Shown: positions 2,060 to 42,784 of the stretch, piece by piece
Position numbering within the stretch: the first letter of the stretch is position 1
Layout of the letters: each line of letters begins with the position of its first letter
Assembly: GCA_000091205.1 (NCBI GenBank)
Contig: AP006500.2
Reading direction: 5' to 3' (one strand)
From: Cyanidioschyzon merolae
Lineage: Eukaryota
Length of the DNA stretch: 64,000 nt
The notes under the pieces: generated by a model
What the model saw: only the letters and a program-made list of their open reading frames with translations
Database searches by the model: none
What the model was told of the DNA's origin: nothing
Translations under genes and position numbers: made by a program

Positions 2060-3384
2060 GTTGACACGGCGTCCAGTTCCATGCATCGATTCTAGGTACC
2101 ACTTATATCAGCAGAACATGCAGTGGGGCAGGTCGATTGACTTGCTGCTCGGATGTACACAAAAAAAGACGGGTTTCTTCCTGCTGCCGTCAACATCACC
2201 ATATCCAGCCTTTGTCTCCGACTATTTCCGTATCCTCGCTTGTGTTCCGTTTTAAATGAGCCGCTGAGCTTGCTCGTCTCAAACTCGATTGTCGGCAGTC
2301 AATGGATGTTGATGGCAGTTTGTTCAAGACCCGATTTCGCTGTTCCCACTGCGGCTGTCGACGTATTCCAAAGACAGGCGAAAGCTCCGACCGAAGCCTC
2401 GCTTGCTATTTTCATCTTCTTCGTATAGAGCCGCGCTGTGCTCCTGGCATCGTCGATACCTGGCTGTGGTCTGGTGCCGTCCGGTGCCCAGCACGCTCTC
2501 TACTCCTCCTCCGAGAGCCGCCCAGTGGCGCACGAATACGTGCATCATCGAGCGCTGCATGCCCTCGACGAGTACCCAAGGATACCGTCGATGCCCTCGT
2601 CCGTAACCGCCGGCATTGCCGTACACTGTGATCACGCGCTTGTTCTTTGCGATCCCAGCGGCACGTAATCCGACCGATACACGTGCGAGCGAACGCTCTC
2701 CCTTTCGATCGATGATTCGTGGAACGCGATGTTGTACGTGACGAACCGAGCACCGAAAGAGGAGCCCTGGCAACAGGTCAAGTCGCGATACGTTGATCCG
2801 TGTACGCTCCTCGCTTGTGCCGAGCAGTGACGCTCGATCCACCGGCAGCGGTACCTCCGATGACTCGAGTCCCGGTCCAAGATACTTGTCTATGCAGCCT
2901 GGAGAGACGGGATCGTCTCGGGACGTATCCCGTCAGGGGCGTCACCTTGGTGCAGCGTCCCGCTTCGTCGATCGCTATCGAGACAGGAGGATTTGCTTTT
3001 CGAACGGAATCGACTATTGGACGCGAGCGTTGCACTGAACTTGCGATAAGATCTTTTGTGGCAGTCGTGCGCAGGCGACGTCGAGTATCTATCATTGTCC
3101 ATCAATCGACCGGAATCACAGCGCCCGCGATTCTCCATGAAATACCCAGACAGGGATCTTGAAGAGTGTACGGTACGGGGATGCTGCACATCAGCACAGG
3201 AGCACACTGGAGGCTCGTACATATCCATTGCTTAATGATATCGGATATTTTACGAACGCATCTTCGATGACACTCCGCGAATCATTTTGACTCCAGCAAC
3301 GCAACGAATTCCATCCGCAAGTATTCTTCGAATATATCACTCGGAAAAGACGCCCCCGCATCCTAGAACTAGGTATGGATCCGA

Positions 3385-5229
3385 ATGCTCGTGTTGCTGC
3401 ACTTTGAAATTAGAGCCTGTTCATCAAAAGAAAAAGTTCGCAAGAAAACCGAAAAAAAGAGCCGCAGCGCCATCGGTAGCATATGCCTTTTCCCATCTGA
3501 CACTGGTGGCGTGTGCCGAGTAGTACTCGACTGCTCGCTTGCGCTCACACACTGGACACGTCGAGCTCTGGTTAGGCATATTCCGCGTCGAAGAATGACC
3601 TTTCTTCAAGCTCCAGTCACGTTTTCAAAGGCGCGTCCGCGACCTTGTCGGGGGTTTGTGTCACCACATCCTGAGTATACTCGGAACGCGAGTCGTTTCT
3701 CTCAACGAGTTCCGTTGGAACGTCGACGTTGCCGCGTGCATACCGTGCTTCGACTCGAGCTGTCGGGTGACGCTTTCGACAAATTTGGAGACAGCTGTAG
3801 AGAGACACCTGCTATAACTGCAACGCCGGGCGAGCAGCGTGAGTCGGGGAGTTTTCGCGAGCGCTACGCTTCGCGCCTGCCTGCGTGGCTCCTCACCCGC
3901 CTCGAGTCGGTCGGTTTTCACCGTTATACGCCTATCCAGAAAGCAGCATTGGACCATTTTCTGGGTACAGACGAGTCAGCACAAGGCGAAGAGCGCGCCA
4001 GGGACGCTGTCGTTTTCGGAGAAACCGGCTCCGGCAAGACTCTGGCATACCTCATTCCGCTGCTGGCCACCGTGAAGCCTACCCGTTCAGCAGTGCAAGG
4101 CCTCGTGATTGTCCCTACTCCGGAACTCGCTGTGCAGGTATATCGCGTTGCTCGCCGTCTTGCTGTGGGATACCTAGCCACGACAGCACCTGCATCGTCG
4201 TCAGTGCCACGGCGCGACCGTTTCCTTATAGGCATTGCACTCAACGAGGCTAGTGTCGATCGACAACGTCGCTTCTTTCGGAACGCACCGCCGAGAATCC
4301 TCATCGGCATCGCGGACCGCATTGAGGCTCTTGCGAGATCCAACAAGCTCCGTCTGCACTCCGTCCGCATGGCCGTTATAGACGAGGTTGATGTGAGCGT
4401 CGGGGAGCCCGCCTACCGGGCAAGCCTTCACGCGCTCCTGAACGTGTACTGCATGTCGAGGATCGAGGGACGGCGCACCACAGTGTTCGTTTCGGCAACG
4501 ATCCCCCAGTATCGACATTTCATGGACTATGCACGCCAGCAGGGATGGATGGATGGCGACATCAAAATCCTCGCAACAAAGTCGAGTCCCATGGACGCCG
4601 CACCGCAGGTGCAAGCCGTCCATGCCGCGACTCTCCGGGCCAACGCAGAGGAAACGCCCGCTTCACCGAACGGCCTGGAGTTGGCGTTGCAGCGCACGAA
4701 CGCTCCAGGCGTCGCACAACTACCCGAACGAATCGAACATTTTTATGTCATCTGCACCGAATCGCGAAAAAAGTTGAAAGCGCTTGCTTTCCTTCTCGAA
4801 AGGGAACGCCCTTCGCTTACCCAGGTCATCATTTTTTGCAGTGAATCACGAAATCTTGACCAGATTGCGAACTATATCCATGTACAGGGTCTTTTTACGG
4901 AATCCGAAGTTGCAGTGTTGTCGACAGCGCTTCCGCTGCGACGCCGACGACTCGCTCTGGAGCGCTTTCGCTGCGGCGAGGTCCGAGCGCTTTTCTCCAC
5001 CGATCTGGCGTCACGCGGTTTGGACATACCCGAAACGAGTCATGTGATCAACTTTGACTTACCCGAGACCGCAGAGCAGTATGCCCATCGAGTAGGACGC
5101 ACGGGAAGACTCGGTCGGCGGGGTCGCGCGATCTCGATAATCGTCCCTGGGGAACGATTCGTGCTTCAGCGCTATAGCAATCGCTTCCGCATCGATTTCA
5201 CGGATTGGACCCAAACTTCCCAGAGCTGA
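3385..5229 (+). CDS. DEAD-box-family RNA helicase with DEVD variant of motif II
   Basis: Q motif (GFHRYTPIQ), motif I (GETGSGKT), motif Ia (PTPELA), motif II as VIDEVD, motif III (SAT) and motif VI (HRVGRTGR). The ORF track starts at 3385, but the real start is more likely the Met near 3594 (MTFLQAP...), which is followed by an Arg-rich presequence-like stretch. Confidence 0.8.
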   Translation: MLVLLHFEIRACSSKEKVRKKTEKKSRSAIGSICLFPSDTGGVCRVVLDCSLALTHWTRRALVRHIPRRRMTFLQAPVTFSKARPRPCRGFVSPHPEYTRNASRFSQRVPLERRRCRVHTVLRLELSGDAFDKFGDSCRETPAITATPGEQRESGSFRERYASRLPAWLLTRLESVGFHRYTPIQKAALDHFLGTDESAQGEERARDAVVFGETGSGKTLAYLIPLLATVKPTRSAVQGLVIVPTPELAVQVYRVARRLAVGYLATTAPASSSVPRRDRFLIGIALNEASVDRQRRFFRNAPPRILIGIADRIEALARSNKLRLHSVRMAVIDEVDVSVGEPAYRASLHALLNVYCMSRIEGRRTTVFVSATIPQYRHFMDYARQQGWMDGDIKILATKSSPMDAAPQVQAVHAATLRANAEETPASPNGLELALQRTNAPGVAQLPERIEHFYVICTESRKKLKALAFLLERERPSLTQVIIFCSESRNLDQIANYIHVQGLFTESEVAVLSTALPLRRRRLALERFRCGEVRALFSTDLASRGLDIPETSHVINFDLPETAEQYAHRVGRTGRLGRRGRAISIIVPGERFVLQRYSNRFRIDFTDWTQTSQS

Positions 5230-5440
5230 CAGCGCAGCATACTAGAGTTAATATCCGTTTGGGCACGACGCCGTCAATGTGGCGTTTCCTCTTCAACGAG
5301 GCACACGAGAAGCGCCATGCGATAACCGTTGCCCTACGCGCAACTGGAGCGGAACCGTAATTCTCATGCATAAGCCGTCGACGAATACCCAAGGCAGCGG
5401 CGTCATAATAGATGAACGCTGAACCTATCCCGTTCGACGC

Positions 5441-8400
5441 TTACAGTGCATCTAGACGGAGCACCGTAACGGACACTTGCATGCCGTCCGTGGCGTCCTC
5501 CGAGGTGACTTGTGGACTCGTGCGCGCCGCCGTCTCTGGGACCTCGGCAGCTGCTTCCGTCAGCAGGCGCTCTATGGCCTCATCGGAGAACGTCTTGGAT
5601 GCGTTCTCGTCGTCAATGCTCAGTCGCACACCGTGGCGAACGAGTCCGCGCATGGTGGCCCGCGACAGCGTCTCACGATGGGTCGCGATCCACTGGAGAA
5701 TCCGCGGTAGCGGTGCCAGATGGAGCTGGATGAACTGACAGAGCTCACTTGCGTACGGGAGCGGATGGAAACCCAGCACTTCTTCCAGATTACCGATAAG
5801 GGTCTTGGCATCTACCAGCGCCTGGCTCACGCATTGAATGTCTACACTGGTGACGGGAATCTGTGCGATGCCGTCCTGAACGGCAACAAGTACGCCAAAA
5901 ACGCAGGCGCGCCACAATGGCTCCTCGGCATGCGCCGGTAGTCCTCGGGATTCGTGCAGCATGCGCAAACGAGCCGTTATCTGGGCTACATATGGACTAG
6001 CCCGCGAAACGGAGACCGCATCCTCATTCCCGCCTGCAGAGGCTTCTCCAAGCGTTTCATGCACAGCGCCTTCTGCCGACGGTGAGACCGGGCTCTGTCC
6101 CTGGGTAATAGACTGCCACCAGGGTGCCTTTTTCTGTTTCAACTGTTGAACGACGTTGCGCGTGATCTCTGCGGTATCCACGAGCGCCGGTGCCAGGGAA
6201 CGGTACAATGCCAGTTGCAGCGCATCGGCGAGGCCACGTAGCTGGTTCGCTCTACCAAGAGCCTCGGCGACAAACGCGTTTCGCCATCGGCTTTCCGGTC
6301 GGTATGCAACCTGTGTTTGTTCCTGAAAGGTGGCCGCTGTCTCCAGAGTCAGCGCAGCGACCTGTCCTATGGTCCAGGCCGACTCCACAGCGCAACAAAA
6401 CTTGCTCAAATTGAGTTCCGACCGCGGTCGTTGGAGCGCTGTTGACGACGCTGCACTGGATCCCGGTTCATGTAGAAAGTGTGCCAAAAGTGCTCGCTGG
6501 TACGCACTCAGTGCTGGCCGCAAGCTTTCATACTTTTCCAGTTGAACGAGACTACCGCCTAGAATACCCGTTGCCATGAAGCACGGCGCGTAGACGACAC
6601 CGAGCAGGTACATCGCAAAAAGTGCGATTTGCTGAATCGCTTCCGCAAATAGACCAGCTGGGGCAACATTTGCATATTCAGATGGTGCATACAGCATCGA
6701 TGCGAGCGTGCCAATGCATTCGATCCCAAATACCGATGCGCCCGTAAATGTATAGTCGTCGGGTATAGAATAACCCTCATCACGATGCAAGCGCTCCCAG
6801 ATAATAGACAGGAGATCTTCAACGCGCAAAGAGGCTAGCTCGTGGGTAAGCACCTTCACCACGAGGCACGAATCCGGATCCGCATCTGGTACTGCATACC
6901 AGGCGCGAATCGTCTCCCAGTAAGAACGCCAAGTCTCCGGTACAAAGCGATTCTGATCGAGCTGCATCTGGTTGCGCGTGTCAGTATTTCCCAGCGACTG
7001 AACGCTGATTGCTTGCCAGTCATTGGGAGTCGCAAATATCTCCATGAAGCGCGACTCAATATCACGTTTGAACAGATCAATATAACTCTTGAGGAGAGGC
7101 TTCACGATATTCTCGTGGATCGTAGCGAGCGGCAACGTGCGCTGCTTCCTCTGTCGAGTACCACGCAGGAGGCGTTCTGCATTCAGCTCCAAACTCGATG
7201 TGCGCACTACCGAGCCGTTCGGGCTTGCAGTAACCATTGAATGCTTCCTTGGTGCAGTCGCATCGAAGCTATAGATACCAGCGGCGCGTCCATCAGCGTC
7301 TTCCGGGAAGTGATCATCGGCTGCAATGGATATCCACTGTGTCTCCAGAGCGTGCAGCACCAGTTGGGAGCGCCAAAGCTCCGCCAGCGTCACTACAGGA
7401 TAGGTATCGTGTTCAGCGACAAGCTGATTCGCCATGAAATCGCAGTCCGCGTCGAGTCGAGCTTGCAGTGCCTCCCAAACGATGCTTCGAAATCGTTTGC
7501 TGATCCTGGGGTGTTCGAAAAGCTGTCGCACTGGGTAACAGATTGCTGAGAGAAATCCAGCCCAGCAGTCTAGAAACTCCCACGGATTCCGTGGTCTCGA
7601 GGCCAGTTCCCCACCAGATGGAGCGGTGTTGCTTGGCACATGTTGCGATTTTGGCGTCCGTGGTGCCAACGCGTTGGCATGGGCGCCTGCAGCCTGCCAT
7701 ACGTTCGTAAAGCTCGCAAGCAACGGCGACGCCACCGCAGCCTCTCTTTTGGATAACTCGTTTAAAGTCGCACCGGAGGCTTGCCTCCATTGTGCGCATT
7801 CGAGCGCCCTTGCACGAATCTCGGCAAGCACATGCTCCAAGGCATATGCGAAACGCTCGGCTAGGACCAACTCAGCGCCGAGATTCTCATAGGCGTTCCA
7901 GACGGCCTGGAATACTTCCGCATCGAACTTGCAACAGAGACCCTGCACCTGCTCGAACATGCACTGAAGCGATCGAGCGGCAAGGTCCATGAACACGTCT
8001 GAGAAATCTCTAAATATTCTTCCCTTTCGAACGACAGATCCAAGTTCTCTACGGAGAAGGCTCGAACGATACAGCAGATCGAATGACTTGCAAAGACGAT
8101 TCGCTTCATCATACTGATGCAGACGCAGCGCATCTCGCACTTCGTCTAAGAGCTGCTGCATCCGTCGAATAGTTTCAAGACTCTGTACAACCGAACGCAG
8201 AAATGAACGCTTGCTTACTTTGCGTTCGAATAGCTCTTCTGATACGTGCAGTTCTTTTCTTGAGCGACGAATAAGGTTCGAGTTTTCAGAAAGCGTCCCG
8301 AGTGCTTTCGACAAAGCGTCCGACACCAAATCCAGTGCGAGCGTTCGCTGCGCAACAGCTTCCGGGCCGGCCCGCAGTCGGACGTAGCGATTACTTCCCA

Positions 8401-9076
8401 AAGCCTGCGCTTGGTAGAGATGAGCCGTGTAACAGTCCAGCTGCTCGGTTGCTCGACCTAACTCATCAATGGCTTCGGTAAGGGCGCTCAAATTGATTAT
8501 CATTTTGCCATCAGCTCGTCGTCGAGATGCACGCATTAGAGCCTCCTGCAGCAAACTCGACGGTGTAACGCTTTCAATGACTTTGAGCTCGGACGCTTTT
8601 TCGTTGGACTCCTTGGCGCCGGCAGCGGCAACGGCACGTTCCACCGTGCTCAAGGAGACGTGCAACGACTTGAGCTGACGAAAAGACAGCTTTTTCGTGC
8701 CTCTCTCCGAACTTGCTGCTTGTCGGTTGCCGTCCTCGGTCGTGTCACTGTGGCGAGGCCGTTCGGGAACGACGGCAGCCGCTGTCGCTCGGGACTGGTT
8801 TTGCCGTGCATTGTAAGCGCGGCAAGTGCTCTCGTACTCAGAATTACAGTGCGAAAACGAGCCAGTGCCTACCGTGGAGCTGCCTGAACCGCCAACGGAT
8901 CCTAACAAACGTAACTCTTTCGCCAGAGGTTCGAACGGGCGTCCCGCAATGTGAAGCTGCTCTGCTGAGAACGAGCGACCGACCCGGAGCCCCCGGGAGT
9001 GGCGTGTTTTTTCGGAGTTCCACGAACCAACGTGCTCACCGGTTTCACGGGGCCGTTCGTGAAGAGATTCCATCAA
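5441..9076 (-). CDS. Large conserved hypothetical protein (1211 aa), function not assignable from sequence
   Basis: Long uninterrupted ORF with coding-like composition and helical, coiled-coil-like stretches. I recognise no catalytic motif. A vesicle-tethering-complex subunit is only a weak guess. Confidence 0.55.
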   Translation of the reverse strand: MMESLHERPRETGEHVGSWNSEKTRHSRGLRVGRSFSAEQLHIAGRPFEPLAKELRLLGSVGGSGSSTVGTGSFSHCNSEYESTCRAYNARQNQSRATAAAVVPERPRHSDTTEDGNRQAASSERGTKKLSFRQLKSLHVSLSTVERAVAAAGAKESNEKASELKVIESVTPSSLLQEALMRASRRRADGKMIINLSALTEAIDELGRATEQLDCYTAHLYQAQALGSNRYVRLRAGPEAVAQRTLALDLVSDALSKALGTLSENSNLIRRSRKELHVSEELFERKVSKRSFLRSVVQSLETIRRMQQLLDEVRDALRLHQYDEANRLCKSFDLLYRSSLLRRELGSVVRKGRIFRDFSDVFMDLAARSLQCMFEQVQGLCCKFDAEVFQAVWNAYENLGAELVLAERFAYALEHVLAEIRARALECAQWRQASGATLNELSKREAAVASPLLASFTNVWQAAGAHANALAPRTPKSQHVPSNTAPSGGELASRPRNPWEFLDCWAGFLSAICYPVRQLFEHPRISKRFRSIVWEALQARLDADCDFMANQLVAEHDTYPVVTLAELWRSQLVLHALETQWISIAADDHFPEDADGRAAGIYSFDATAPRKHSMVTASPNGSVVRTSSLELNAERLLRGTRQRKQRTLPLATIHENIVKPLLKSYIDLFKRDIESRFMEIFATPNDWQAISVQSLGNTDTRNQMQLDQNRFVPETWRSYWETIRAWYAVPDADPDSCLVVKVLTHELASLRVEDLLSIIWERLHRDEGYSIPDDYTFTGASVFGIECIGTLASMLYAPSEYANVAPAGLFAEAIQQIALFAMYLLGVVYAPCFMATGILGGSLVQLEKYESLRPALSAYQRALLAHFLHEPGSSAASSTALQRPRSELNLSKFCCAVESAWTIGQVAALTLETAATFQEQTQVAYRPESRWRNAFVAEALGRANQLRGLADALQLALYRSLAPALVDTAEITRNVVQQLKQKKAPWWQSITQGQSPVSPSAEGAVHETLGEASAGGNEDAVSVSRASPYVAQITARLRMLHESRGLPAHAEEPLWRACVFGVLVAVQDGIAQIPVTSVDIQCVSQALVDAKTLIGNLEEVLGFHPLPYASELCQFIQLHLAPLPRILQWIATHRETLSRATMRGLVRHGVRLSIDDENASKTFSDEAIERLLTEAAAEVPETAARTSPQVTSEDATDGMQVSVTVLRLDAL

Positions 9077-9333
9077 AAGGTAGCATAATCAAGTCGGCAC
9101 AGCACGCACCAACAACGCCTTTCGAAAGAGAAACGTTGTCACCGGGCGTGTATAGTAGTGGCGAGTGACCTGCCCTAGACAAGAAGTCTCCAACTGAGGT
9201 GCAGACGCCTCTCCGTCTTTTTGGACCGGCCACCCACCACTTCTTCAAACTTTTTCTCATATAGTTCTACTTTGAGAGGTTTTCCAATAAAATTCTCTCG
9301 TATCAGCTCTGGAGGTCTATTCTCCAGCACCGC

Positions 9334-11419
9334 CTATTTCCTTACATTGATAGCGGCGTTAAAGTCTCGGTTCACGAATTCCATACGTTTCTTGCCATCA
9401 CTGGTTGTACTTATTAGTGCAAGTAGTCCACGAACTTTCGCTCTCATTTCCATTTGCTCTTCCGTCAGCGGTCCGTACCATTTCATATCCTCAGGGCTCC
9501 TCTGGCACTGTTCCATCTCGACCCCCTGAAGTGTGCATCCCGGTTCATGGTGTGGATAAGACGTTCGAAACTCATCAACAGGTATCGTGACAAAACGCCG
9601 TGCGCACTCCTAGTACGTTCTTGTCTTTGGAGCTGGAGTAGTCCCTTTTTGGATCTTCCAGCGCCCTGCTCTGTATGCTACTACGAGCCTCCGACTTTGA
9701 TCCTCTTTGAGGGCGCTCAGTTGATTGAAAAAGTTCGCGAACGCCCGCCGCTTACCGCAATATAAATTCATTCGCAAAAGAGCCCAACTGGGATTTGTAT
9801 ACTCCTCCCACAGTGCATCCCAATGAGGAACACGTACATTCATGAACTTCCGAAAAGCTTGTAAGCCCGCTCCTCGGCTCGTCACCTCGCTCAAAGCTTC
9901 CAGGTGATCCTTCATTCCTGAATTCCACGTAACAATTTTCTTCCTCACATTCATTATACCGGATTCTCGATAGTATCTCGCTCTCGAGAACCTCAATAGA
10001 CGCAAGTCTTTCTGACGTAAGTTGCCGTCAATGCCGTCTTCCCCACATTTGAGTGCGGCGATGGTAACGATATTCGTGTTCCCGGGGTCCGCGCCAACGA
10101 CCAAGTCGTTATCTTGCACTTTCTGTGTCGCAGGACCCGCCTGCTTCTCATCTTCATTCTTCGTCGCGGGCGGAGCTGGACGATCTGTCTTCAAGCGCCG
10201 ATTGTGCACACTCAAGGCTACTCCATCGGTTTCGATCATCCCAGCGAATACCTTTTGTTTGCTGACTTTGAGACGTTTGAAATCGAAGATATTCTTCCAG
10301 TACTTCTCCCGGTTTTCGCCGGAGAATCCCTCCTTGCTGACACCGAACTCGGGACTGATCTCGCTAATGATGCCGTAAAGGATTCTGGACTCGATAGTAA
10401 CAAAATGTGACTTGATGTTGCACATTGGAACCACGTTGAAGCGCTTCCCCATTAGGAACGCCTTCCGTCTCTCCCACTCTTCATTTTTTCCCTCAATCAG
10501 CTTCATCTCCGCCTTGCGCTCGAGTTCTCGACTCAGCGACACGAAATACCGCAGGATAAAGGGATGCCATCCTTTTCATAATTGATACCCTTTTTTGTGG
10601 ATGCATCAGCCCCAGAACCGCACGGTGCTCTTGAATAGCCGCACAGATCACAGAAGCTTTATTCTCTCCCTCGCATGATGTCTTCTTGTGGACGAATTCC
10701 ATTTCCTGTTCATTCTTACTATCGTTCGTGATGCTATCGATGATGGCCCATATCCTTTTGCGAGAGAGGCCCGGGTACAGCGCAAAGATGAAGCCTATCA
10801 TGAAGCGTTTGAGGTTCATAGTCATATGGTTCTTCCGGTACGTGAGGTACTTCGTCGCTCCGTAGGTGTAAATATCCCGGTTACCCATGTATCGAGTACC
10901 CTCGACGCGGAATTCCACGAAATTTTCGTAGAGGGCGTGCACTGGCTCATTATCCCTCCGCGCCTGCCGTGTACCAACCATCAGGTGGCGAACGAAGGTC
11001 TTGTTGAAAATTCCTCCGGAACCTCGACTGTTTTGATTTCCGTCGCGTTGCGATACATCTCCTTCACCAAATGCATTAGCCCTTACGAAGCGTGTATAAT
11101 ACTCATGGATTACGAATCGACACGGTTTCCGATGGCTTCTCGCATCTTCTCCTTATACGGATCTTTAATATGTCCAAGAAGACAGGCTTTCACGACCATC
11201 TCGTCGTACTGTCGTCTTTCTTGCAGTCTTCGACGTAAGGCCTCCCCCTTTTGCCTCTTTTCCGCTTCCTTTTCCTCTCGACTTGGCACTGTTTCTTGTT
11301 TTTTTTTTCTGGCAGCCGGCGACAATTGGTCCCCATGATCGTCGACTTGATTTTTCAATTCTTTCCTTTTTAATTTTTGAATATGAACGCTCTTTGAAAG
11401 CCTCTACTATAACCAGCAA
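9334..11419 (-). pseudogene. Fanzor / TnpB-like RuvC nuclease gene (eukaryotic OMEGA-type RNA-guided nuclease family), disrupted
   Basis: Minus-strand reading gives RuvC-I-like [18 protein letters not shown], then ...FVTIPVDEFRTSYPHHEPGC...C (the TSx-Cys/His zinc-finger segment), then RuvC-III ...GKKRMEFVNRDFNAAINVRK* ending at 9334. The frame is interrupted by an in-frame TAG at 9610-9612 and changes frame near 10493-10575. A Lys/Arg/Glu-rich N-terminal extension lies at 11110-11419. Combined length about 600-690 aa. Confidence 0.7.
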
Positions 11420-12423
11420 AAAATCACTTAAAAACTTTTGTTTGAGGTTTGAAACACAATCGAATTGAAAAACTATACTTTGCTACGACTTTAACGCAAA
11501 GACCACTTGTAAGTTACAGCAACGCGCTGATGATCTGGATCTCATTCCCCGTCAACGGCGACGTACACATCGTGAAAGCCTGATATGGAGGTGCGTGTAT
11601 CGACCGTGCTTAATAGAAAAGAACAAAAACAAACAATTGACTAGCAATTCGATGATATTTTCGTTCAACTCTCATGGTATATGTTAAAAGGAGGAAAAAC
11701 TTTCCATGTTGTCGAAAGCTTACGATCTAGGCGGAAGGTCCCGCGACCCTGACGCCTTTGCCGGGCTCGCGCTTGGTGCCCCCAACAATGACTGGTGCTT
11801 TGGTTAGATATGAGCAGCTCGTACACAACACACTTTATTCTGGGACTAGGAGCGGGTAGACTGCCTCTGGGCGTCGCACTGGTCGGGTTGCTCTCCTTGC
11901 ACATCGCTTCGCGCTGCTCCAAAAGGTACGTCTTTCTGCGCAGTTTGCATGCTCCGAGAATGACAATGTATCCCGACTCCGCGTCGAATGGACTACGCCT
12001 CGAGCCGACGCCCTCAGCTGGTATAGCAAAGCAGTTCTATCTCCATGCTGGATGCGCACCAGCCGTAAAAGCGCTTTGGCGGGTGCATCAAGGCAGGTAC
12101 TCGGCGTCAGAATAGAACGTACAAAAGGACCGGTACATCCGAAAGGAAGTGCAAGTGATGAAACTTGGAGGTAGGGTGCAGCATGATAATCGATTTTCCA
12201 ATTATCAATATCCGTCCCGCAATCTGGGATCATCCGTGGTCAACGTAAGCGGTTTGTCATTGGAAACAAAATCAACGCAAAAGACGCCATTGGGTTTGTG
12301 CACGCGTTTCGGGACGCCTCAGCTTTCTTGTTGTTTGTGAACAGTTTCTCTAGTATCCGGTTCTGCTTCTTTGCTTTTTTGCTGTCATCCCGCTATCTCA
12401 GAAAGTTCTGAGTCGAGCTGTGT

Positions 12424-13167
12424 TTGTGTGTGCGTGCGAGCTCCTGCATGGAAGCACCGACAGCTTCCAGCGATGCTGCTCTATCGAGCCCGGTGGAGTC
12501 GCGGGACGCGCGGCTGCCCGCGGACTCCCTCGAGGCCACAGCTGCGCTGCTGGAGGCACTCTCACGAGTAAAGGAACTGGAAGGAGAACTGGCCAACGAA
12601 CGCCGTCGGCGTATTGCTTTGGAAAACGAAGTGCAACAGCAGAAAGCGCTGAACGTACGCATCCAGCAGCAGCTGGAAGCCGAAGAAGAGGCCCTAACGA
12701 ACCGCCTGAACAAACGCCTCAGCGAGCTTCGTTTAGAGAAAGAACAGCTCGCTCGTGATATTGAACGAGAGGAGGAGTACTTAACTAATACGCTCCAGCA
12801 GCGCTTGGAGCAACTGAAAAAGGAGAAAATCGACATGGAGAACGCTTTAGAGGCAGAGCAGGAGGCTATTGTCAACCGCCTCCAGCGCGAAGTACAGAAA
12901 CTTCAAAAGGAAAAAGCAGCGTTGGAAAAGCAGCTGAGTCAGTATGCACGCTCGAGCTTGGATCTACCGCCCGCAACACCGAGTGACTCCGAAAGCGAGC
13001 GCGACATTGTTCGCAGGCGGCGTTCATTCAGCCGCGACTCCAGTCCACGTGTATCCGCTGCCGCTTTCCGGGCACGTCTGGAGCAGACTCGTCTAGCCGG
13101 CCATAGCAGTTCAAGTGCGCACACCACACCACCTGGTACGCCGCCTCGTCCGAAAGATCAAGCATGA
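12424..13167 (+). CDS. CCDC6: CCDC6-like coiled-coil protein (DUF2046 family)
   Basis: Repeated EEE(A/Y)LTN(R/T)L...LxxEKxxLE heptad blocks (EEEALTNRLNKRLSELRLEKEQL; EEEYLTNTLQQRLEQLKKEKIDMENALEAEQEAIVNRLQREVQKLQKEK) match the signature repeat of CCDC6. The likely start is the Met at about 12447. Confidence 0.75.
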   Translation: MCVRASSCMEAPTASSDAALSSPVESRDARLPADSLEATAALLEALSRVKELEGELANERRRRIALENEVQQQKALNVRIQQQLEAEEEALTNRLNKRLSELRLEKEQLARDIEREEEYLTNTLQQRLEQLKKEKIDMENALEAEQEAIVNRLQREVQKLQKEKAALEKQLSQYARSSLDLPPATPSDSESERDIVRRRRSFSRDSSPRVSAAAFRARLEQTRLAGHSSSSAHTTPPGTPPRPKDQA

Positions 13168-13902
13168 TATGACGAGTGGAGTGCGGAATGGGCGTAGCCA
13201 CGAAGCCTTCGACACCCTCGGGTCGCTTCACCAAAGGCCCGCGCCCATGCTCCCATGCATCCGTCGGAAATCGTCGTCACCTTCACACATTCGCAGTTGT
13301 ATTGAATCTCATTCTTGCTGTCATCCATGACGAAGAAGGATTCCATGCGGAGCGTATTTTCGCGTAATGAACTCTTTCGTGTTTGCCGCTTAAACCGACG
13401 ATACGATTCACGAGAAACGCTTGAAAAGTAGCGCACGCGTGGAAACAGATTTTGCGGTCACAGAGCGGATACATAGAAGCGTGCATTTCGTGTTCACAAA
13501 AGCTCTGTGCACCTGTGTTGCCCTAAATCTTGCCTCGTTCTCACCGCCACGTTTCTAAAATAGCAAGCTAGAGGAGGAGTTGTTTTGCCGCCTCAGCCAC
13601 TGCACTGACGTTCTGCACCCACACCTACTGCCGTTACCGGACGATACCGGGGCTGCATGAACCACGGTCAACGTCGTCACTCGGATGCCGCCACAGAGAA
13701 CATCCTTGGTAACGCCACGGTCCGGATGTCGAAGGCGCTTTGCCTATGAAGCGCGTCCTAGCGTCGATCAGCATACACACCCGACGGGTTTTCCATGCAT
13801 GGTCCAGCCACGAAACAACTCGGACTCCAAGATATATGCGCTCGAGTCCCAAACTTGGTTCCTTCCTGTGAACAAATCCCGTCGCGACACCGCTCTATTC
13901 AA

Positions 13903-14916
13903 CTACCCCATCCGGATCGCCAAGAAAGCAACGAACCATAGCGCGATGGCAACCGCTACCAATAGCCACTGGGAGCAGATGGAGCGCACCCGTTCGTTCA
14001 CGTAGGTCTGCAGCCTTCCCTGCTGCGTTCGGACACTCTCCAGATTCCGCTCCAACTTGGGTTGCATCCGATCCAATATCTCATTGTCTCGCGTCACCGA
14101 TTCTTCAATCTGTTCTGCATGCTCACGTATGCGACCTACGGTATCCGATAAGACCTCAACGTACCTGTCCTGAAGCTGGAAATGCGCGAGAACCCCATCT
14201 GGTGCTTTGATGGCATATCGCGAGCTCGTCGATGAGACTTGTCCGGTGGGGTCCGCTGCGACCGATGGAAGCTCCAACCAGGTATGCTCCTTGCCAGGGT
14301 GGCTTCGTCGGCGTCGCAGTACAGGCTGTTTGATTTCCTGCCCTTCTTCTCGTTTCGTTTCCATAGGCTCAAACAACTTAAAAAAAGGAGCGTATTCCGC
14401 GAGCGTCTCAGCAACGACGGTCTCGGGGTCGGACTGCTCCCTCCGAGGCAACGCTTCGGCAGACGCCAGGCGCTCCACTCCAGGCGCTGCCTCGGTCACT
14501 TTGTCTAGTCGTCGCTCGACGAGCTTGTCTAGCTTATTGAACCATTGCAGAAAGGCGTCAAGTTGGCCCTCGATATCAACGCTTGGCAGTTCACCGTCCG
14601 GAGACTGTCGGCGCAAAGCCGTAACCACCTCTTTGAGAGCGACTAGGTACACCCTGAGATGCTCAGTACGCACGAGCAACTTGCCAAGCGTAGGTACGCT
14701 CACCGTTGTATCCGCGTTATTCGGGATGGAATGCAGTAGGTCTTCGAGTTCTCGCAAACGGTTCCCGATGGTTCCAGTGAGCTTCTTGGAGACGCGCCTC
14801 AGCTCTGCAGGCGAACCCGTGAGCAGGTCCCGAGCGATGCACGCTTTGGGTACTTGCACTCTTTCCAGAACCGGCTGGTGTCCGAGACTTGAGCCTTTTC
14901 GCAGCATCATTCTCAA
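13903..14916 (-). CDS. Tail-anchored membrane protein with SNARE-like C-terminal coiled coil
   Basis: 337-aa ORF with a single C-terminal transmembrane segment (WLLVAVAIALWFVAFLAI) directly after a heptad-like helical region (EQIEESVTRDNEILDRMQPKLERNLESVRTQQGRLQTYVNERV). This is t-SNARE-like (syntaxin-18/Use1/Sec20), but the family is uncertain. Confidence 0.45.
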   Translation of the reverse strand: MRMMLRKGSSLGHQPVLERVQVPKACIARDLLTGSPAELRRVSKKLTGTIGNRLRELEDLLHSIPNNADTTVSVPTLGKLLVRTEHLRVYLVALKEVVTALRRQSPDGELPSVDIEGQLDAFLQWFNKLDKLVERRLDKVTEAAPGVERLASAEALPRREQSDPETVVAETLAEYAPFFKLFEPMETKREEGQEIKQPVLRRRRSHPGKEHTWLELPSVAADPTGQVSSTSSRYAIKAPDGVLAHFQLQDRYVEVLSDTVGRIREHAEQIEESVTRDNEILDRMQPKLERNLESVRTQQGRLQTYVNERVRSICSQWLLVAVAIALWFVAFLAIRMG

Positions 14917-17899
14917 CCAGCAGAAACGGAGATGAGTTCCGTGGACGCATACATCAGCGAGGCAGCGTCCCGTTGGGAAGACCCGAACCGCTAGACAATG
15001 TTAGAACACGTTCGCAGCAACGCCTGATGCGGGTGCAGCGAAGCGGTACACTTCTACGGCGAGTTTCGGTGTATGAAAGTGCCCTGAAAGCGATCTTTAG
15101 AGTGTGCTGGCCATGGCGCTGCGGTGCAAACTACCTGTAATGTGACAGGAACGTCTAGGAAACGGAAACGTTCTAATACAGTAAAAGCAAACCTAAGATT
15201 ACGTGAATCCTCGTCACCAAAATCGGTGTAAAATAGAACGGATCCACTACTCCAACCCAGACGTTCACAAACTAGTGCGGGTCTATCGCTGCTCTAGTGA
15301 CCACTAACCTCTGCGGACTTTTTCTGAGACAAATCGTTTCCCTCTCTCTTATCTGCGGCTTTAAAGATGCCAGTCTCTCACGTCCGTCTATTTCTGTTGT
15401 TAGCAGTCGAAGGATGTGGATCACACTTTTGAAATCCCTATTCCGCAGTTTCCGAAAACTGTGCACGCATTCCGAGCATAGGGAAAAGTTACGAGCAACA
15501 CATCGTTTGCGGTTTTCATCTTTTTGGTGCAGAGGCTCGATGCACGCTTCGCAGCAATGACACTCGGGTGCGTTCAGGTGTTTTTGTATGTCCACTAAAC
15601 GTCTTCTTCCGAAGGCTGCCGCACTGCGGCGCGCGAAGGCTTGCTACATCGTTTAGTACAGTCCCATAACGGGCACAGAAGGCTGGCTTCGATTTCCTCG
15701 ACAGTTCCACGTCCGGTAACGGACCCAATAATCGCCGGCTTCCTTTGGGCGATCACCTGAGCGAGTACGACGTCCGCTGTATGTGCAAGCGCATGCTGTT
15801 CTGCCCGATAAAGGATTCTTGGAACGCGCTTTTTTCAACGATGACACGAGTGTTGGAAGGGAAATAGGGGCAAGAGAAGAAGTCGAGAAATTTCGATACA
15901 TCTACGCCTCCTTCGTGCGAAGCGCTGGCGCACTCTCCTCTATCGCAATGGATCGTGTTGATGACTCAGGTCCAATTACCAGACCCGTTTCCGTTCAGGC
16001 AGAAGAGACCGGAGCACCTGGGAGCATATACCGTGAAAGGTGCCATGCTACTGTCGAGCGTCATTTCCTCGATGGCTTCAAGGAGAGGAGGATTTGTGTT
16101 TCGAACGGAATCGCCTCTTTGAAATGACATACGCAGTGAGCTTTCAGCATGGGCTTGAAAAATAATCTTCAAGGAGCAACGTCGGGATACTTTCCTTGTC
16201 AATCCCCGTACGCGAAATGCCGCATCTACCAGTTGCCTTGAGACACGAAGATCGAAAACATGAACCATGCGTGATTCGAGCTTGCATTATGTGAGGAAAA
16301 GAGAAGCGTCGAAAGTTGTACATTTGAATTGGATAGTGATACAGCCTGTTTTACGAACTCTTGTTCAATGGCGTCGCGAATCATCTTGACTCCGGTGACG
16401 TAAAGTAATCCAACGGCAAAGCGTGGAAGGAGCCGCTCCTGAAATACGTCCGAGAATCCTCAAACGATCATTGAATATGTAAGCCCTAACTGCTGCACTT
16501 CGAATGGCGACGCTGATCATCAAACAATTTCGAACAAAAATCTCAAGCAGGACATAGTGAGCAGTTCAACGTTCCATGGATATCTGACTCACGTGGCACA
16601 TATGCGAGTGGGCTCTCGGGATTGCTGTTGGCCAGCAGCTCATTCAATACGTATGCTTCTCGACGCTTGCCGACGCGTTGCGTCAAATATGAAGCGCTTG
16701 GACATGGAAGTACTCTCCTAGCCGCCGATCAAAACAGCGCCAGCGAAGATCCCTCTTTTGACTCACCAATATTGCACCTAACAAACGCAACGAAAGGGCC
16801 GCTGCTGCAGCGGCCACCACACGCTTGGTGCTGGGGGACACACGACGCTGGCTTCCTTGCTGGCGATGTTTCCGTATTTCATGACGAAGAACTACACGAA
16901 GAAAATCATAAAGTTCGTGTCGCCTTTGCGCTTTCCATAACGGAAAGCAGGCAGATGGTCCACCTGGCTGGCCCTGGTATTGGATCAGTTCCCCTAAGGT
17001 CTTTGTCAAGAATTGCAAGCGGATCGGAAGCGTTCTAGCTGAGGATCTCGATGCTCGCGCATAAGAATATCAACCCCATGCAACATATGGGCGCCGCATC
17101 AAACATACCTGGCCTGTCTTTCCTCCTGGTGTCAAGTCGCAGAACTTGAATGTCCCTCCTTGCATAAAAAAGCGCGAGAGAAAAGCGTGAGTATACGCGA
17201 CGCTTCCCGACGGACTCCAATCCTTGGTTTGCACGCGGCAAGTACTTCACTGTTGATCGGGCTATGTGCAGCAAGCGATGTGCGCCTAACAGACACAGGG
17301 TACCAGCAGCCTCCCGCAAGTCCTGCGGTAGCTGGCAACAACCTACATGGTATCGCCCTCGCTGCTCAGCAGCAGCGCGCCAATTGAAAGCACCTATGGC
17401 CCGCTTCTGCAGCAGACGCGCTCTGTGGTAAAGCAAAGCCGTTCTGACTCCTTGCTACGACCGCACCAGCGATATAGGCGCTATCGGGGCTGCTCAGGGC
17501 AGGCACGCAGCCCAAGATAGAACGTGGAAAATACCTAGGAGGGAACGTATCGGTCGTGGAACTCATACGGAACGATGGACGTTTGGCCAATCGATACTAT
17601 AAAGCCCTCAATTGGTAAACCTGGGTCTCTCTCTCCCTGTATATATGTACATATGCGTGTGGGTGTCAAAGATGTTTCCGACAATAAAAAGAAACAGAGC
17701 ATCTGTCGAGAGCCCCTGCATGCCTCGTCGAAGCGTCTCCCAGGAAAGCGCCCGTGTCATCGATCAGGAGGGATTACTTGGGGGTGCTTTGGTAGGCACC
17801 CCCGAAATGTCGCGACGCGCGCTGTTGCCCAGTCGCAATCTCGATTCGTGAACGTACCTACGCTCTAGATTCTCTTCTGGGTCGAAAACTCACTCAGTT

Positions 17900-21337: not shown

Positions 21338-21760
21338 AACGATCAGAGCGCTATGTTAAGCGCGCTTACACAGGTACGAATGCGGCATTCTTGCGAGGAT
21401 CATGTCGACAGCGAAGAAATCGGGATCAGGTGAATTAATCGGGATGAGCTGGATTCGATGCACCCGCGAGCATCTAGTCGGCTTCCGGGAAACGGGGAAC
21501 GGATTGATCAACCGATTCTTCTGGCCCGGTATGCGAGCGGGCCCCAAGTCGGCTGCCGAGAAACGGACTTTTGGTCGACCCAGCGAGTTTCGCGACCTAG
21601 AGCCTTGCCGTGGGCGCTCGTAGCAATCCAGCATGTAGTACAATGGTGAACGCGCGAAAACAGGACAGATTTGCGGCACCGTCATGGGTATGCGCCCAAT
21701 TTTATCGATAACAAAGTCAATGCGAGCTGAAAGCGTAATACGAATATCTAAAACACCGTA

Positions 21761-24700
21761 CTCAGACCAGTGAATCCTGGAACACCTGGACCAGCAGCCC
21801 ATATTTGTTTCCGATCGTCTCTCTCGCAGATATGCAACTGACAGTGGCGTCCTTTGGATATGCAAAAAGTCGCGGATAGTCGTCCCGCTGGCACTGCTAG
21901 CTTGCGCGGAGACGGTCTTGAATGTACAAGTCATTCATTCTGTGATCAACAGGCGGGTCAGTCTCGCTTGAGCGGGTCGTTCTCCTGCCGCTCATGATCC
22001 CAAAATAGGGCCTTCCAAGTGCTATCGACATGACTGTCTCTCCATCAGTGTACGCCAGTCCATAGATGCTCAAAGAAACGGTATCAGAAAACCCACTGGA
22101 TGCGAATTTTCCATACCCTTGATATGAGCCGTGGTGAAGCGACATGGATGGGCAAAGAGAAAAAAAGGTGCCTCCCCAGGAGACCGTCACGAGCTGGACA
22201 ATTTCGATTCCGCATTGATAGGCGAACGCTTATGACAGGAGCGACCGGTACTCGCCTCTCTCGGTAACAGCTCTTTCGTGAAAAACGGAGGATCTAAACG
22301 TAGATACGCAAAGCGGTGCCAAAAATTCCTCTCGTAAAGCCTCGACCGGTGAGCGTAGCGACGACAACATCAGCCCCAGCGGCGATTCAAGCATGTAGTC
22401 GCCTGAGTCTCGGCAAACAGGCAGACTCAAGCAACACGTCTGCCTCCCTTCTTCGAAGCACTCTGTGGCCTCTGCTTCTCGCGTTATTCTGTCCTGCGGG
22501 TAGGCCACGTTGCTTGCTGTGACGCAAAGGCGCTCCACGAGTGCGCAGCTGAGACGAGCGTTGAGCTGGTGTTCGCTTCAGCCTGGAAGTGCACGCTCAG
22601 TCCAGTTGGAAGCGTCTTCTCTGTCCTCCGTCGCCATGCTTTCCCTCAGGATGCGTTCCATAAAAACGTTCGGATGCGTGACGCTGTCCTTGGACAAGTC
22701 GTTTTCAGTCTTCGTCAGCGTTGAACGACTCTGGTGCTGAGCGGGTCGCCTGCGGGGAGGGATCGGTGAAGCGCGCCTCAGGCGTTTGGCACGCTCGCGG
22801 CTGAGAAGCTCGTGGAAAAGGCAGCTGCGGGATCGGAAACATATATACGCGGGGAGGCAAGTTGCTGGCTCGCCGTCCATCCACGGGGTCTGACTGCCGG
22901 TGTAAGAAAATGGAAGTGGAGTGCGACGTGCACATCCACGCTACCCGCCACGAAAGGAGAATGCGAAGCAACCACCTGACAGAAAAGAGAAGGATCCCAG
23001 CCGCAAAGAGGACGACGAGAGTCAGGAAGGAAACCCTGCGCACTGGAAAGGCCAGTCCGAAACCAGCGCCTACACGTCGGTGCCAGAACGCATCAACGGA
23101 AAAAATTCTCCGAGTACGTGAGATGCCCAGGGCTATTAGGTATTGCGTAGAATGTGGTTGACGGAAGGCCCGCCTAGCTCTCCCCGAATGGATGCCCCTC
23201 GTGCAGCAACTGGCGGGAAGGGTTTCGGAGGCAGCGCTGCCAGCAGTTCGCATTCGTAGGGAGTTTTTGGTCAAACCCTCGAGCGACAGCACTAGGAATG
23301 CTCCGCTCCGAGCATGCCAGCGGGCCTGTTCGTGGTGTCGTTGACCAATACACACGCTGGCCGGCATCCGTTTCTGCGCTGCACTACATGGTTGCTCGGC
23401 CCATGGACAGCGTAGGTGCCAGGAAAAGTTTCGCCCAAACCTCAGAACCTATAGCCAAGAGCGGGTCCGTGGCGACTACCCTACGAGGCGCACCCCAGAG
23501 GCGTTGTACTCGTTGCGTCCACAGCGTTGTGGTCGACGAAATGTTGGCGACTGACGCAAGCGGCTCTTGGGATGTCCGTGGAGGCACGTGACGAGCTGGC
23601 TCCGGACGAGAAGGTGCTGGAAGCGAGCTCGGAGATGTCGCATCGAGAACGAGCGACGCTCCAGATCGTCCGAGCTCATGGAGTAGGTTTCTGTTCCGGA
23701 GCTGGGCACGTCGTCTCGGAAGGATTACGCGGGCGTTGACCTGGCCTAACTTGCATCCTGCGCTGCTAGGTTTTCGCGAACGCGGCGCTCCACCGCAAGG
23801 CAGACCCTCTGGTCGTATGTGAGCGCCTTTGCATCCTCAAACCCCTGGTCGATACGGTCCCCGCATTTCGGGGCAAAGCCCATGATACCACCGTGCATAT
23901 TTGTGTGGTGTACGACGTCCTCAGTGGTCTACGATGTGTGCGCACGAGCAGCTAGGGGGCACTCTGCCTATTTCGGGCAGAGCGTTGGCGGGGCTCGTTC
24001 AACGCCACTCGTTGGCTGGGAAAACACGGAAAGCGATGTACAGGGGCCTTGGGGACGCGCACGGCACATCAAACAGCATGCACTTTGCGAAACCGCGGCC
24101 CGATGGGAGCAACGAGACTCATATTCAACCGCTTACGGAAAACGAACGTGAAGGCTTCGTGGTGCGCGTGGATGCCGTTTCTGAGGGCGCCGTGGCCGTC
24201 ACCGTGCCCGTTCGTCACGGGGCAGCGCCAGAGACCTGAACGGAAAGCAAATGAGTCTGCTCCACGCCTCCAGGGCTCGGTATCATCCGGAGTTGGACGT
24301 GAACGACGCCAGCAGGCGTACCAACTCGTGGAATGACGACGTAAAGACCTGTCGTGACGCGCTGAGTACGGTATCGGGCAAAAGGAGATGCACTGCGCAC
24401 CTCATTCATAACGGGTATGAGCGACTAGATCGCTCATGCGGACGAGCCATGGCAGAGGAACGCGGGACCGAGCTCGAGTCTCCAACAGTCGCAACCGCTC
24501 GCGGGCACGAGGCGGGTATTCGCAAGCTTCCTCAAAGCACTGGAAACGGAACTGGCCGATCGGTTGCATCTTATAAAGATAGTGCATGGCGGTGGACGCG
24601 CTCTAGTTGCAGAACTGGACTGTCGTCGATAACGCACAAGGGATCCGCGAACCGGCACTGAAGTGCTCTCAGTGATGAGCTCTGGACGAGATTCTCACAT

Positions 24701-25185
24701 CGCGAGCACAGAGACACGCTGAAACTGCCGCTGGAGACGATTTGGAAACGGAGCCGGACGTATGAGATGACGTACGCTGAGTTCATTGAGCTCCAGGTGG
24801 CAATGCAGTCACAGTTGAGACGCTTGCTGTGGAGTGTCTCCATCACGAACGGGAAACGCGTCCAGTTTCTGAACCGAGATTTGAGCGCCCACATCAGCAT
24901 CTGGAACTGCGTCGTTCTTCAGGAGCGTCCATCGGCTTTACTTCAGGCGAGGCTTCGATTCGATTGTTTAGTATGCAGTGTGGGTATTGTGCTGGAATGC
25001 TGCGGACTCTCGATGAAAAACATCATGTATCATCAGAGCGGCGATTAAGTCCCCGCTTGGAGCAAGCCACTTGTATGGTACGGTCTGCACTGTATCAAGG
25101 CTGGACTGCCATATACCTTCGCCACGAACAATGCTCGTGGGTAATTGTCGAACACTCATCGTATTCCTTACTTGGGTATTACGGA
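21761..25185. repeat. 3.4-kb dispersed repeat R, copy 1 (no intact ORF)
   Basis: Near-identical to 39046-42468 and to 63229-64000. ORF-track entries are duplicated between copies with only point differences. Longest ORF is 220 aa with no recognisable domain. Confidence 0.9.
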
Positions 25186-30689: not shown

Positions 30690-31030
30690 TCCTGTCTTCG
30701 TAAAGTGCATATAGAGGGCGATGAAGGATGTGCTCAAGCCCCACACGGCGACGTTCGAAGGCGACGATGTGGTGGACACACGGAAATAATTGACTTCCCT
30801 CGAGTTTCACGGCTGCGAAGGGCATACCAAGGCTGTTTCCAAGGAAGATGAAAATAAGAGTCGGAACGTGAATCGCTACTTTCACGTATGCATAAAATAC
30901 GCAGAAACACGGCCGGAAGCAGTAAAATCGGGATTTTAACGCAGCCATCAACATCCATCAACTGCGAACAACGGAGCTGGTGGGGCAGGAAAGACCAGCA
31001 TTCTAAAAGCCTGAGACAAGAACGCATTGA
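30690..31030 (+). repeat. Partial copy of the ~1.4-kb IR-arm repeat family
   Basis: About 300 nt align with 49400-49700 and with 38440-38700. Matching blocks: cacggctgcgaagggcataccaaggctgtttccaaggaagatgaaaataagagtcggaacg // cacgcctgtgcagagggcagcgagactgtgtccaaagaagatgacaagagcaattgaaacg, and cgtatgcataaaatacgcagaaacacggccggaagcag // cctgtgcatgaaatgcgtctaaacaggccgcaag. Confidence 0.6.
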
Positions 31031-38800: not shown

Positions 38801-39045
38801 ATGAGCTAGTCGGAGTTGCACCATTTCGTTCTGAAAAGTGTGGATAATTTGCACGCAGTTTGTTCCGTTGTCAACAGTGATGCCTCGCCAGATTTCTGAG
38901 CATCTCGACGATGCATGACAGCACAAGGAAGTTTCGGTGTTGCTATTCAGACTCTAATTATAAATATGACCAAGAGCACCACCGATCAAACAGCTATGCT
39001 GGCCGAGGCCGCGGAGTCCACGAATGCGGCTGACGGTGCGCTAAA

Positions 39046-42468: not shown

Positions 42469-42784
42469 GTATAGCGCTGTAGCAAACGAGGCTGGCGCTG
42501 CAGTGCGTGGCATTCAAACATGACTCTGCGCTGGCCTTGAATTTCGTCCGGGCGGCATTCCGGTACAGTCTCGAAAACTTTCTCTGTGCAGCAGCGTGCA
42601 GCTGTCTGCAACTTTAGTTTGAGTTACCGCGCTATTACGTTCATATTCTGTACAGCACTCTTTTGCAGCGGTAGAGCTAGTTCTCTGTACAGCTGCGTAC
42701 TTTTATATATATATGAATACGCTCTGCGGGGCGAAAATGTTTCGCGAACATGAGGTAAACTCATGTCCAGTCACCGACGCCTTC

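Follow-up and report, generated by a model that had tools for sequence, protein, structure and literature searches.

The Fanzor1 family CMe-1A of the red alga Cyanidioschyzon merolae comprises about 150 copies of ~3 kb, which are ~80% identical to their consensus and lack terminal inverted repeats; their 5' 635 bp also occur in TE-N2_CMe, and intact relatives still exist (Bao & Jurka 2013, Mob DNA 4:12; PMC3627910). In that study the ends of CMe-1A were left undefined and neither a 3' structure nor an omega-RNA was described (PMC3627910). We analysed a stretch of 64,000 nt from C. merolae 10D, a genetically tractable thermoacidophile. This stretch is called the window in the following, and all coordinates are window positions. 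Four Fanzor-like copies with related 3' regions were compared: c1 (near 9108-12278, minus strand), c2 (42724-43297, minus strand), c3 (45364-45840, plus strand) and c4 (58491-59083, minus strand). An earlier note, made from the sequence of the window, had proposed the interval 9195-9345 of c1 as a candidate omega-RNA or right-end region, conserved as DNA irrespective of the reading frame. Our analysis demonstrated that this interval is very likely the protein-coding C-terminal tail of a dead CMe-1A copy. New is what lies downstream of it, a defined right end at ~9108 and a covarying module of two stem-loops, both for a family whose ends had not been defined before. The short, internally deleted derivatives of the family are likewise described here.

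The best described Fanzor1 systems provide the frame for this comparison. Transcripts of SpuFz1 from Spizellomyces punctatus reach 14-15 nt into the variable flank (Saito et al. 2023, PMC10432273), and S. punctatus contains 134 "ghost" loci of ~550 nt which are without an open reading frame (ORF) but have kept the ends (PMC10432273). The omega-RNA of GtFz1 from Guillardia theta overlaps the 3' end of the ORF by 17 codons (PMC10432273). Seven base pairs are reported for stem-loop 1 (SL1) of every Fanzor1 omega-RNA, whose only stem-loops in SpuFz1 and in PpFz1 from Parasitella parasitica are SL1 and SL2 (Xu et al. 2024, PMC11423790).

The copies of the window belong to the known family CMe-1A: they agree with it in the organism, the length of ~3 kb, the identity of ~80% to the consensus, the missing terminal inverted repeats and a 5' module of ~635 bp of the TE-N2_CMe type. 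SpuFz1 is similar in protein homology at the profile level (E 9.6e-13), in the two stem-loops with seven SL1 pairs, and in the size of the module and its position behind the stop codon. The SpuFz1 ghost Spu-1 has a counterpart in short ORF-less derivatives (~550-600 nt) which retain the 3' module, except that the short elements described here still carry ~100 codons of the ORF end. SpuFz1 elements differ further by inverted repeats of 30 nt, which the CMe-1A family lacks. RNA expression, ribonucleoprotein formation and cleavage were shown for SpuFz1, whereas the CMe-1A module is known here from sequence alone; the likeness of the module at 9177-9108 to the SpuFz1 omega-RNA scaffold is a resemblance backed by protein homology and does not prove an RNA.

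With ISDra2 TnpB and the IS200/IS605 elements of bacteria the family has the RuvC nuclease in common and, if the module is a scaffold, also its location from the 3' end of the gene through the right end. In the bacterial elements the right-end hairpin doubles as a DNA signal and as part of the RNA. In contrast to the TnpB scaffold, which overlaps the ORF by at least 100 nt, no structure or covariation was found inside the ORF in this family; moreover, there is no TnpA here and the host is a eukaryote. The Helitron2-borne elements CRe-1, CRe-2 and CRe-3 of Chlamydomonas (PMC3627910) resemble the family in a 3'-terminal hairpin, an excess of internally deleted 3' fragments and a T-rich 5' junction. 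Unlike them, the termini read …GGCGTTTGTTGT or …GGCGTTGATGGT and are not CTRR-like, and asymmetric terminal inverted repeats were not recognised when the 5' end was compared by eye with the region upstream of the 3' hairpin. A RepHel partner was not identified, but no search was aimed at RepHel.

Coding character of the interval 9195-9345

Family copies were obtained by a scan of metagenome contigs, which gave 268 confirmed matches and from which 80 loci with family copies were retrieved. The conservation values of the family refer to an alignment of 59 non-redundant copies, and the consensus ORF was built from 28 full-length copies.

The four 3' stretches are homologous, as stated previously. 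A blastn search of the window against itself connected them with E values from 2e-10 to 2e-22 (c1 9269-9548 with c3 45675-45401, 67% identity, E 5e-17; c2 42767-42931 with c4 58537-58701, 74% identity, E 2e-22; c3 45585-45724 with c4 58701-58562, 70% identity, E 2e-10). Anchored at the NAAIN codons, c1-c4 could be aligned over 52 codons free of gaps, with nucleotide identities of 58-74%. The idea that c1 uses a different reading frame did not hold. Codon alignment of c1-c4 and the family copies places c1 in the same frame as c2-c4, merely with an in-frame TAG at 9334-9336 (minus strand), where a Tyr or Cys codon (TAT/TGT) is present elsewhere and the family consensus reads AGATGTGCG. The frame of c1 looked different because of this premature TAG. 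Beyond it c1 stays in frame (AVLENRPPELIRENFIGKPLKVELYEKKFEEVVGGRSKK...); the tail of c1 reads in a single frame NAAINVRK, stop, AVLENRPPELIRENFIGKPLKVELYEKKFEEVVGGRSKKTERR, and the corresponding frame of c2 reads NAAINIKGYAALKTTPEELTRASFLGQPLVLEVNNEKLTPMARGRPIKAGRRR up to its stop codon. The interval 9195-9345 (minus strand; …VRK, stop, AVLENRPPELIRENFIGKPLKVELYEKKFEEVVGGRSKKTERRLH…) corresponds to the codons of this tail. One nonsense mutation in a pseudogene can thus make the similarity of repeat copies look independent of the frame.

Conservation regardless of the coding frame was not observed either. Among c1-c4 the ratio of nonsynonymous to synonymous divergence (dN/dS) of the tail codons is 0.30-0.49, the third codon positions are the most variable ones, and with a dS of 0.5-1.4 the synonymous sites are nearly saturated. 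In several intact metagenomic relatives, P0007 among them (…NVRKCAVLETRPPEWTRGNFFGQPLKVELYEKKLEAAVGGRSKETGRRLHVSWRLLG), translation continues into the tail, whose motif NI.RC.....RP..L.R is near-invariant in relatives at 30-40% identity. The sequence FVNRDLNAALNIrrC…..RPeaLtR aligns with the last C-terminal residues of PpFz1 (…RPPLFSRE) and SpuFz1 (…RPEVFSRS), which identifies the tail as a conserved part of the Fanzor1 protein. The family consensus is one ORF of ~780 codons with the stop codon at 9177-9175, and therefore the whole interval 9195-9345 is located inside the ORF.

The degree of conservation is in line with this assignment. In the interval 9345-9195 the top-base frequency is 0.83-0.92 and the nucleotide diversity (pi) is 0.179, or 0.175/0.142/0.220 by codon position; in the upstream coding region 9480-9361 the values are 0.83-0.93 and 0.163, or 0.109/0.103/0.277. 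Conservation of the interval does not exceed that of the remaining element, an outcome which the earlier note itself had regarded as speaking against its proposal. This equality is due to protein coding and not to a young age of the copies. Codon periodicity is absent from the post-stop part, with a top-base frequency of 0.62-0.74 at 9150-9106 and a pi of 0.35 for the whole post-stop stretch 9177-9106. Beyond ~9105 conservation is at background level (pi 0.70, no periodicity).

The GGCCGG motif and the palindrome CCGGCC-N6-GGCCGG of c2 do exist, but they do not mark the end of the element, since family similarity reaches ~9108 and the element continues about 90-120 nt beyond GGCCGG. In c1 the motif (9226-9231, minus strand) is a Gly-Arg codon pair (GGC CGG) in the basic C-terminal tail, and in-frame translation around it gives GGRSKK, RGRPIK, GGRRKR and GDRPKH in the different copies; the c2 palindrome is part of the ORF remnant. 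A module shared by all Fanzor-like copies was not confirmed, because the relics at 24218-24937, 41501-42220 and ~30179-30976 are without it at the DNA level. Taken together, the interval 9195-9345 is very likely the coding tail of c1; it is not an RNA element and requires no new biology.

A structured module downstream of the native stop codon

The consensus ORF ends with …RRLHVSWRRFV and the native stop codon (TAG) of the family at 9175-9177 (minus strand). Family similarity persists for ~65-70 nt past this stop and then falls to background, which places the end of the c1 element at ~9108. Single-sequence folds revealed two hairpins within these ~70 nt in almost every copy. SL1 (9156-9177, minus strand) begins with the stop codon and consists of UAGGGCG…CGCC.CUA, with seven conserved pairs and a one-base bulge. 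SL2 (9112-9139, minus strand), identified by folds and covariation, is the terminal hairpin; it measures 10-18 bp in the members of the family and ends at the right end of the element. Its sequences vary yet always fold, as in CGTCGTTCGA-CTT-TCGAACGGCG, AACGTTTTTC-TTTT-GAAAGGCGTT and CCGGCGAGCACGCGC-TCGT-GCGCGTGCTCGCCGG. The general expectation of a structured, covarying non-coding 3' module was correct in this respect, although such a module is found at 9177-9108 and the reasoning and the coordinates given for it were not.

RNAalifold, applied to the 59-copy alignment of 9380-9085, gave only -3.4 kcal/mol and no consensus structure in 9195-9345; this weak result over 9380-9085 comes partly from MAFFT, which misaligned the register of the terminal hairpin. 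Hence a covariance model of the post-stop module was built on 16 copies and then used to align 52 matches. In this alignment, which was fitted to the structure of the model and leans towards it, 82.5% of the cells are paired, compared with 32-61% in slid controls. Double-sided changes occur in 16 of 25 pairs (8.5±1.9 in shuffles), and for the whole structure none of 500 shuffles reached the observed value on any of five measures. Compensatory changes are present in nine of the ten inner SL2 pairs; helix 1 of SL1 is paired to 84% across the 52 copies and hardly varies. Folds made independently of the alignment yielded a mean terminal stem of 12.0 bp, versus 4.0 bp in a coding control. Because of the slid controls and these alignment-free folds we regard the covariation signal as real. 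Many pairs of SL2 are G:U on the sense strand, and in 46 of 57 copies it is the sense strand that yields the more stable fold. The overall diversity in the post-stop stretch (0.315) equals the level of four-fold sites; the sequence behind the stop drifts while the pairing stays. An Rfam scan of 8900-9500 detected no matching family.

Solitary copies of the module were also observed. They comprise 105-122 nt, namely the last 12 codons, SL1 and SL2, and are located ~1 kb upstream of full Fanzor copies (L026:312-431, L027:243-347 and L049:314-418; a further one is L018:2-65). These solo modules start abruptly after …GTTATTTT, 36 nt upstream of the stop codon, and possibly represent the smallest unit that acts in cis or as RNA.

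Identity of copy c1

Comparison of c1 with the 80 related loci by blastn delimited an element of ~3.2 kb. Right ends were located at 9097-9114 and left ends either at ~12260-12278, with the TE-N2-like module attached, or at 11560-11574. On the minus strand c1 consists of a core from ~11574 to 9108 and a separate TE-N2_CMe-like 5' module from 12278 to ~11600. Its decayed Fanzor1 ORF extends over 9175-11335 (minus strand), with the start ATG and the native stop deduced from the consensus ORF; three-frame translation revealed a frameshift near 10540 and two stops in frame.

Both c1 and the family consensus contain RuvC motifs, among them NRDFNAAIN. For a broad protein profile we selected 63 diverse relatives from the 1,464 cluster representatives of an exhaustive profile search. 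The split RuvC triad D…E…D is situated in the C-terminal half; D, E and RD are near-invariant in the 63 relatives, and those of the family align with the RuvC motifs of solved Fanzors. Searched against PDB chains, the 63-relative profile matched PpFz1 (9cf0, E 2.7e-20), SpuFz1 (8gkh, with the E value given above) and GtFz1 (9cer, E 5.8e-6). A profile of the close copies only had no Fanzor match among PDB sequences, and Pfam scans of c1 and close relatives assigned no family. A weak precomputed DUF8286 is the only family label on record, and PF07282 was obtained in three distant relatives only below the cut-off (E 0.002-0.09). Between RuvC-II and RuvC-III, where a C4 zinc finger/TNB is expected, the sequence reads …TSYTHHELGC…EKC… and not CxxC…CxxC. 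The homology search retrieved 178 relatives, several of them intact and nearly all from Joint Genome Institute metagenomes. With seven Fanzor relics in 64 kb the family is mobile and multicopy, and intact copies appear to survive in populations of acidic hot springs.

A unit of ~25 residues (DNDLVVDA.KHE..KEA.PATQEVQ) is arranged in tandem just upstream of RuvC-I (c1 ~10090-10170, consensus residues ~440-505). It occurs once in c1, three times in the consensus and apparently up to ~5 times in the longest metagenomic proteins, and the last unit merges into the catalytic GADPG motif. The hot-spring metagenome contigs L001 and L003-L005 contain the locus orthologous to window positions 3610-16536 with 99.1% identity and the same broken c1, whose stop after …KTRTY they share. 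Insertion and decay of c1 are therefore older than the divergence of these strains.

Short derivatives c2, c3 and c4

The family hidden Markov model matches only the last 80-120 residues of c2-c4 and in c2 only the last ~80. In the ~575 nt of c2, a TATA-box promoter, a start codon and N-terminal codons are joined to the last ~100 codons and the 3' untranslated region (UTR). The same architecture is found in c4 (~590 nt), whose mini-ORF is in frame but has three stops. In c3, likewise a short 3' derivative, more of the interior is deleted; this copy is arranged head-to-head with c2. Alignment of c2 and c4 with three metagenome loci (L035, L048 and L070) identified a common 5' part composed of a TATA-like box, the ATG and N-terminal codons. 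The first ~100 nt of this part match the start-codon region of the full-length consensus with an alignment score of 63, compared with 19.8±2.5 for shuffles. By this sequence comparison c2-c4, which are about 70% identical to each other, are internally deleted, non-autonomous derivatives of ~480-590 nt from an older subfamily. Because of the internal deletions only the 3' region matched c1. The ORF at 59522-60943 was considered as an N-terminal part of c4 and rejected as unrelated.

Head-to-head 3' fragments with the right ends pointing outward were seen twice: L051:3020-3445 (minus strand) and 3440-3979 (plus strand) abut, and c2 and c3 are 2 kb apart.

Possible functions of the right-end module

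Combining these results, we consider it probable that 9195-9345 is a coding tail, that c2-c4 are deleted derivatives and that a non-coding right-end module lies downstream. The similarity of the four tails would be inherited coding sequence, maintained by selection at the protein level before each copy decayed; c1 would share the frame of the other copies and merely carry a nonsense mutation, and c2-c4 would have retained promoter and start, the last ~100 codons and the 3' UTR. The true right-end module would be the ~70 nt behind the native stop, with SL1 at 9177-9156, SL2 at 9139-9112 and the boundary at ~9108. In active members of the family this module may be transcribed as the Fanzor1 omega-RNA scaffold, with 15-20 nt of the flanking DNA past the right end as the guide. 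In c1 the site of such a would-be guide is 9090-9107 (minus strand), where similarity is at background (pi ~0.70), by analogy with SpuFz1 (PMC10432273). The hairpins SL1 and SL2 may in addition act as a DNA signal for the right end. Since the nuclease gene is broken, the module in the window is a relic.

We put the odds that the downstream hairpins function as an omega-RNA at roughly even. A wider proposal can be advanced tentatively: CMe-1A of the Cyanidiales would possess a compact omega-RNA gene of ~70-110 nt behind the stop codon, ghost copies and solo 110-nt modules would persist as intact copies act on them in trans via flank-derived guides, and the nuclease would be adapted to heat and acid and have a very small scaffold. 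If the omega-RNA function is true, the intact relatives from hot-spring metagenomes would be candidates for a compact, heat-tolerant genome editor, and the short derivatives would be a second example of "ghost" Fanzor loci.

Several observations speak against these assignments. SL1 provides no evidence of covariation across the 52 copies, since it is conserved in sequence, and the alignment behind the SL2 signal has the lean mentioned above. At the 3' ends of c2-c4 the covariance model (R1) found nothing, and the 3' UTRs of c2-c4 share no consensus fold according to RNAalifold on five short elements; as old copies, c2-c4 neither support nor contradict the post-stop module. An AlphaFold2 model calculated from a shallow alignment of 24 close sequences reached a mean predicted local distance difference test score of only 32.6. 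Four-fold sites are slightly less diverse in the tail, taken as the last 55 codons, than in the rest of the gene (0.227 vs 0.288, one-sided p = 0.026), and a short overlap of an RNA with the end of the ORF is possible on this sequence evidence. Finally, palindromes close to the end of an element also typically act as DNA signals in rolling-circle and single-strand transposons.

The last point leads to the main alternative to an omega-RNA function, a right-end signal at the DNA level. The post-stop hairpins might serve solely for recognition of the right end or for termination by a single-stranded-DNA transposase, either Helitron/IS91-like or IS200/IS605-like, and have no role as a guide RNA. 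The terminal palindrome is located exactly at the 3' end, the strand-specific G:T pairs would suit single-stranded DNA as well, and there is an excess of 3' fragments, some of them head-to-head (c2/c3, L051). The Helitron-borne Fanzor1 copies of Chlamydomonas show the same overabundance of 3' ends (PMC3627910), and the T-rich left flank and the hairpin with which the 5' module opens would also fit. However, the termini given above lack CTRR-3', the element encodes no transposase, and Bao & Jurka could not classify CMe-1A (PMC3627910). Furthermore, the protein is a Fanzor1, and every tested Fanzor1 has an omega-RNA from the position of these hairpins. A purely DNA-based role is on balance unlikely, though by no means far-fetched; the DNA signal and the omega-RNA are compatible and not exclusive.

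It is much less probable that the tail 9195-9345 with its GGCCGG hairpin is itself the scaffold or the right end, conserved for RNA or DNA structure. Bacterial TnpB and GtFz1 are precedents for such an arrangement, since their omega-RNAs overlap the end of the ORF, in GtFz1 by 17 codons. The reduced four-fold diversity of the tail, the start of the solo modules upstream of the stop codon and the perfect c2 palindrome, which has one apparent compensatory change relative to c1, agree with it. Against it, all four copies use one frame with the dN/dS and dS values given above, the tail aligns with the C-termini of solved Fanzor1 proteins, conservation does not exceed that of the rest of the gene, and the element extends well past GGCCGG. 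RNAalifold returned nothing for the tail. The hairpin CCGGTC...GACGG drawn in the earlier note showed no covariation, and 253 of 500 shuffles reached the observed pairing; the tail allows two hairpins, this one included, which pair no better than column shuffles and contain no excess of compensatory changes, as 216 of 500 shuffles match them. Along the gene the four-fold-site diversity is ~0.29, and in the tail it dips weakly to 0.23-0.25, but other 30-codon windows of the gene match the tail or fall below it. A scaffold in the tail is by these results largely refuted. A stem ACGTC…GACGT in the last 12 codons was also tried and rejected, since by eye its variants were not compensatory.

The least probable explanation is that the hairpins are ordinary 3'-UTR elements of the Fanzor mRNA, for example for 3'-end formation or stability: they do follow the stop codon directly on the sense strand, but in dozens of independent insertions SL2 terminates precisely where the mobile element does, the module is also found alone without the ORF, and we know of no such role of a 3'-UTR hairpin at Fanzor loci.

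Left side of the family

In contrast to the defined right end, the left (5') side varies between the copies in a modular way, and upstream modules of at least three kinds occur. The TE-N2_CMe-like module of c1 adjoins other Fanzor copies in either orientation and also occurs alone (L016, L061, L075 and L081). In other copies its place is taken by another module, rich in palindromes (GGACACGTGTCC, GCGCTCAGTGAGCGC), which makes the left side of the family a mosaic. Directly 5' of the TE-N2-like start CGATGACAAAACGTTTACATTGA, which can itself fold into a hairpin, a T-rich run TTTTT[C/T] was observed in the window at ~12279-12290 (minus strand) and at the left junctions of 10 copies, with T at position -2 in all 10 and at -4 in nine. 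This run could be a target motif, a motif of the target-adjacent type or part of the element itself.

Other features of the window

The large ORFs of the window are eukaryotic housekeeping genes, coding for USP7, a Vps54-like protein, a DEAD helicase and a fused fatty-acid-oxidation enzyme, and two window proteins are identical to BAM82571 and BAM82567 of C. merolae 10D. A segmental duplication of 3.4 kb with 99% identity (21760-25185 and 39045-42468) holds a divergent Fanzor relic, and a third, partial copy of it is present at the end of the window (22061-22834 / 39346-40117 corresponding to 63229-64000, 98.6-99.4% identity). The segments 48336-49758 and 52755-51333 form an inverted repeat of 1.4 kb with 99.7% identity around ~1.6 kb. 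An old dispersed repeat family with 64-67% identity, unrelated to the Fanzor copies, was identified at 15880-16521, 37549-38409, 48408-49271 and 51820-52683 and also at 2962-3144.

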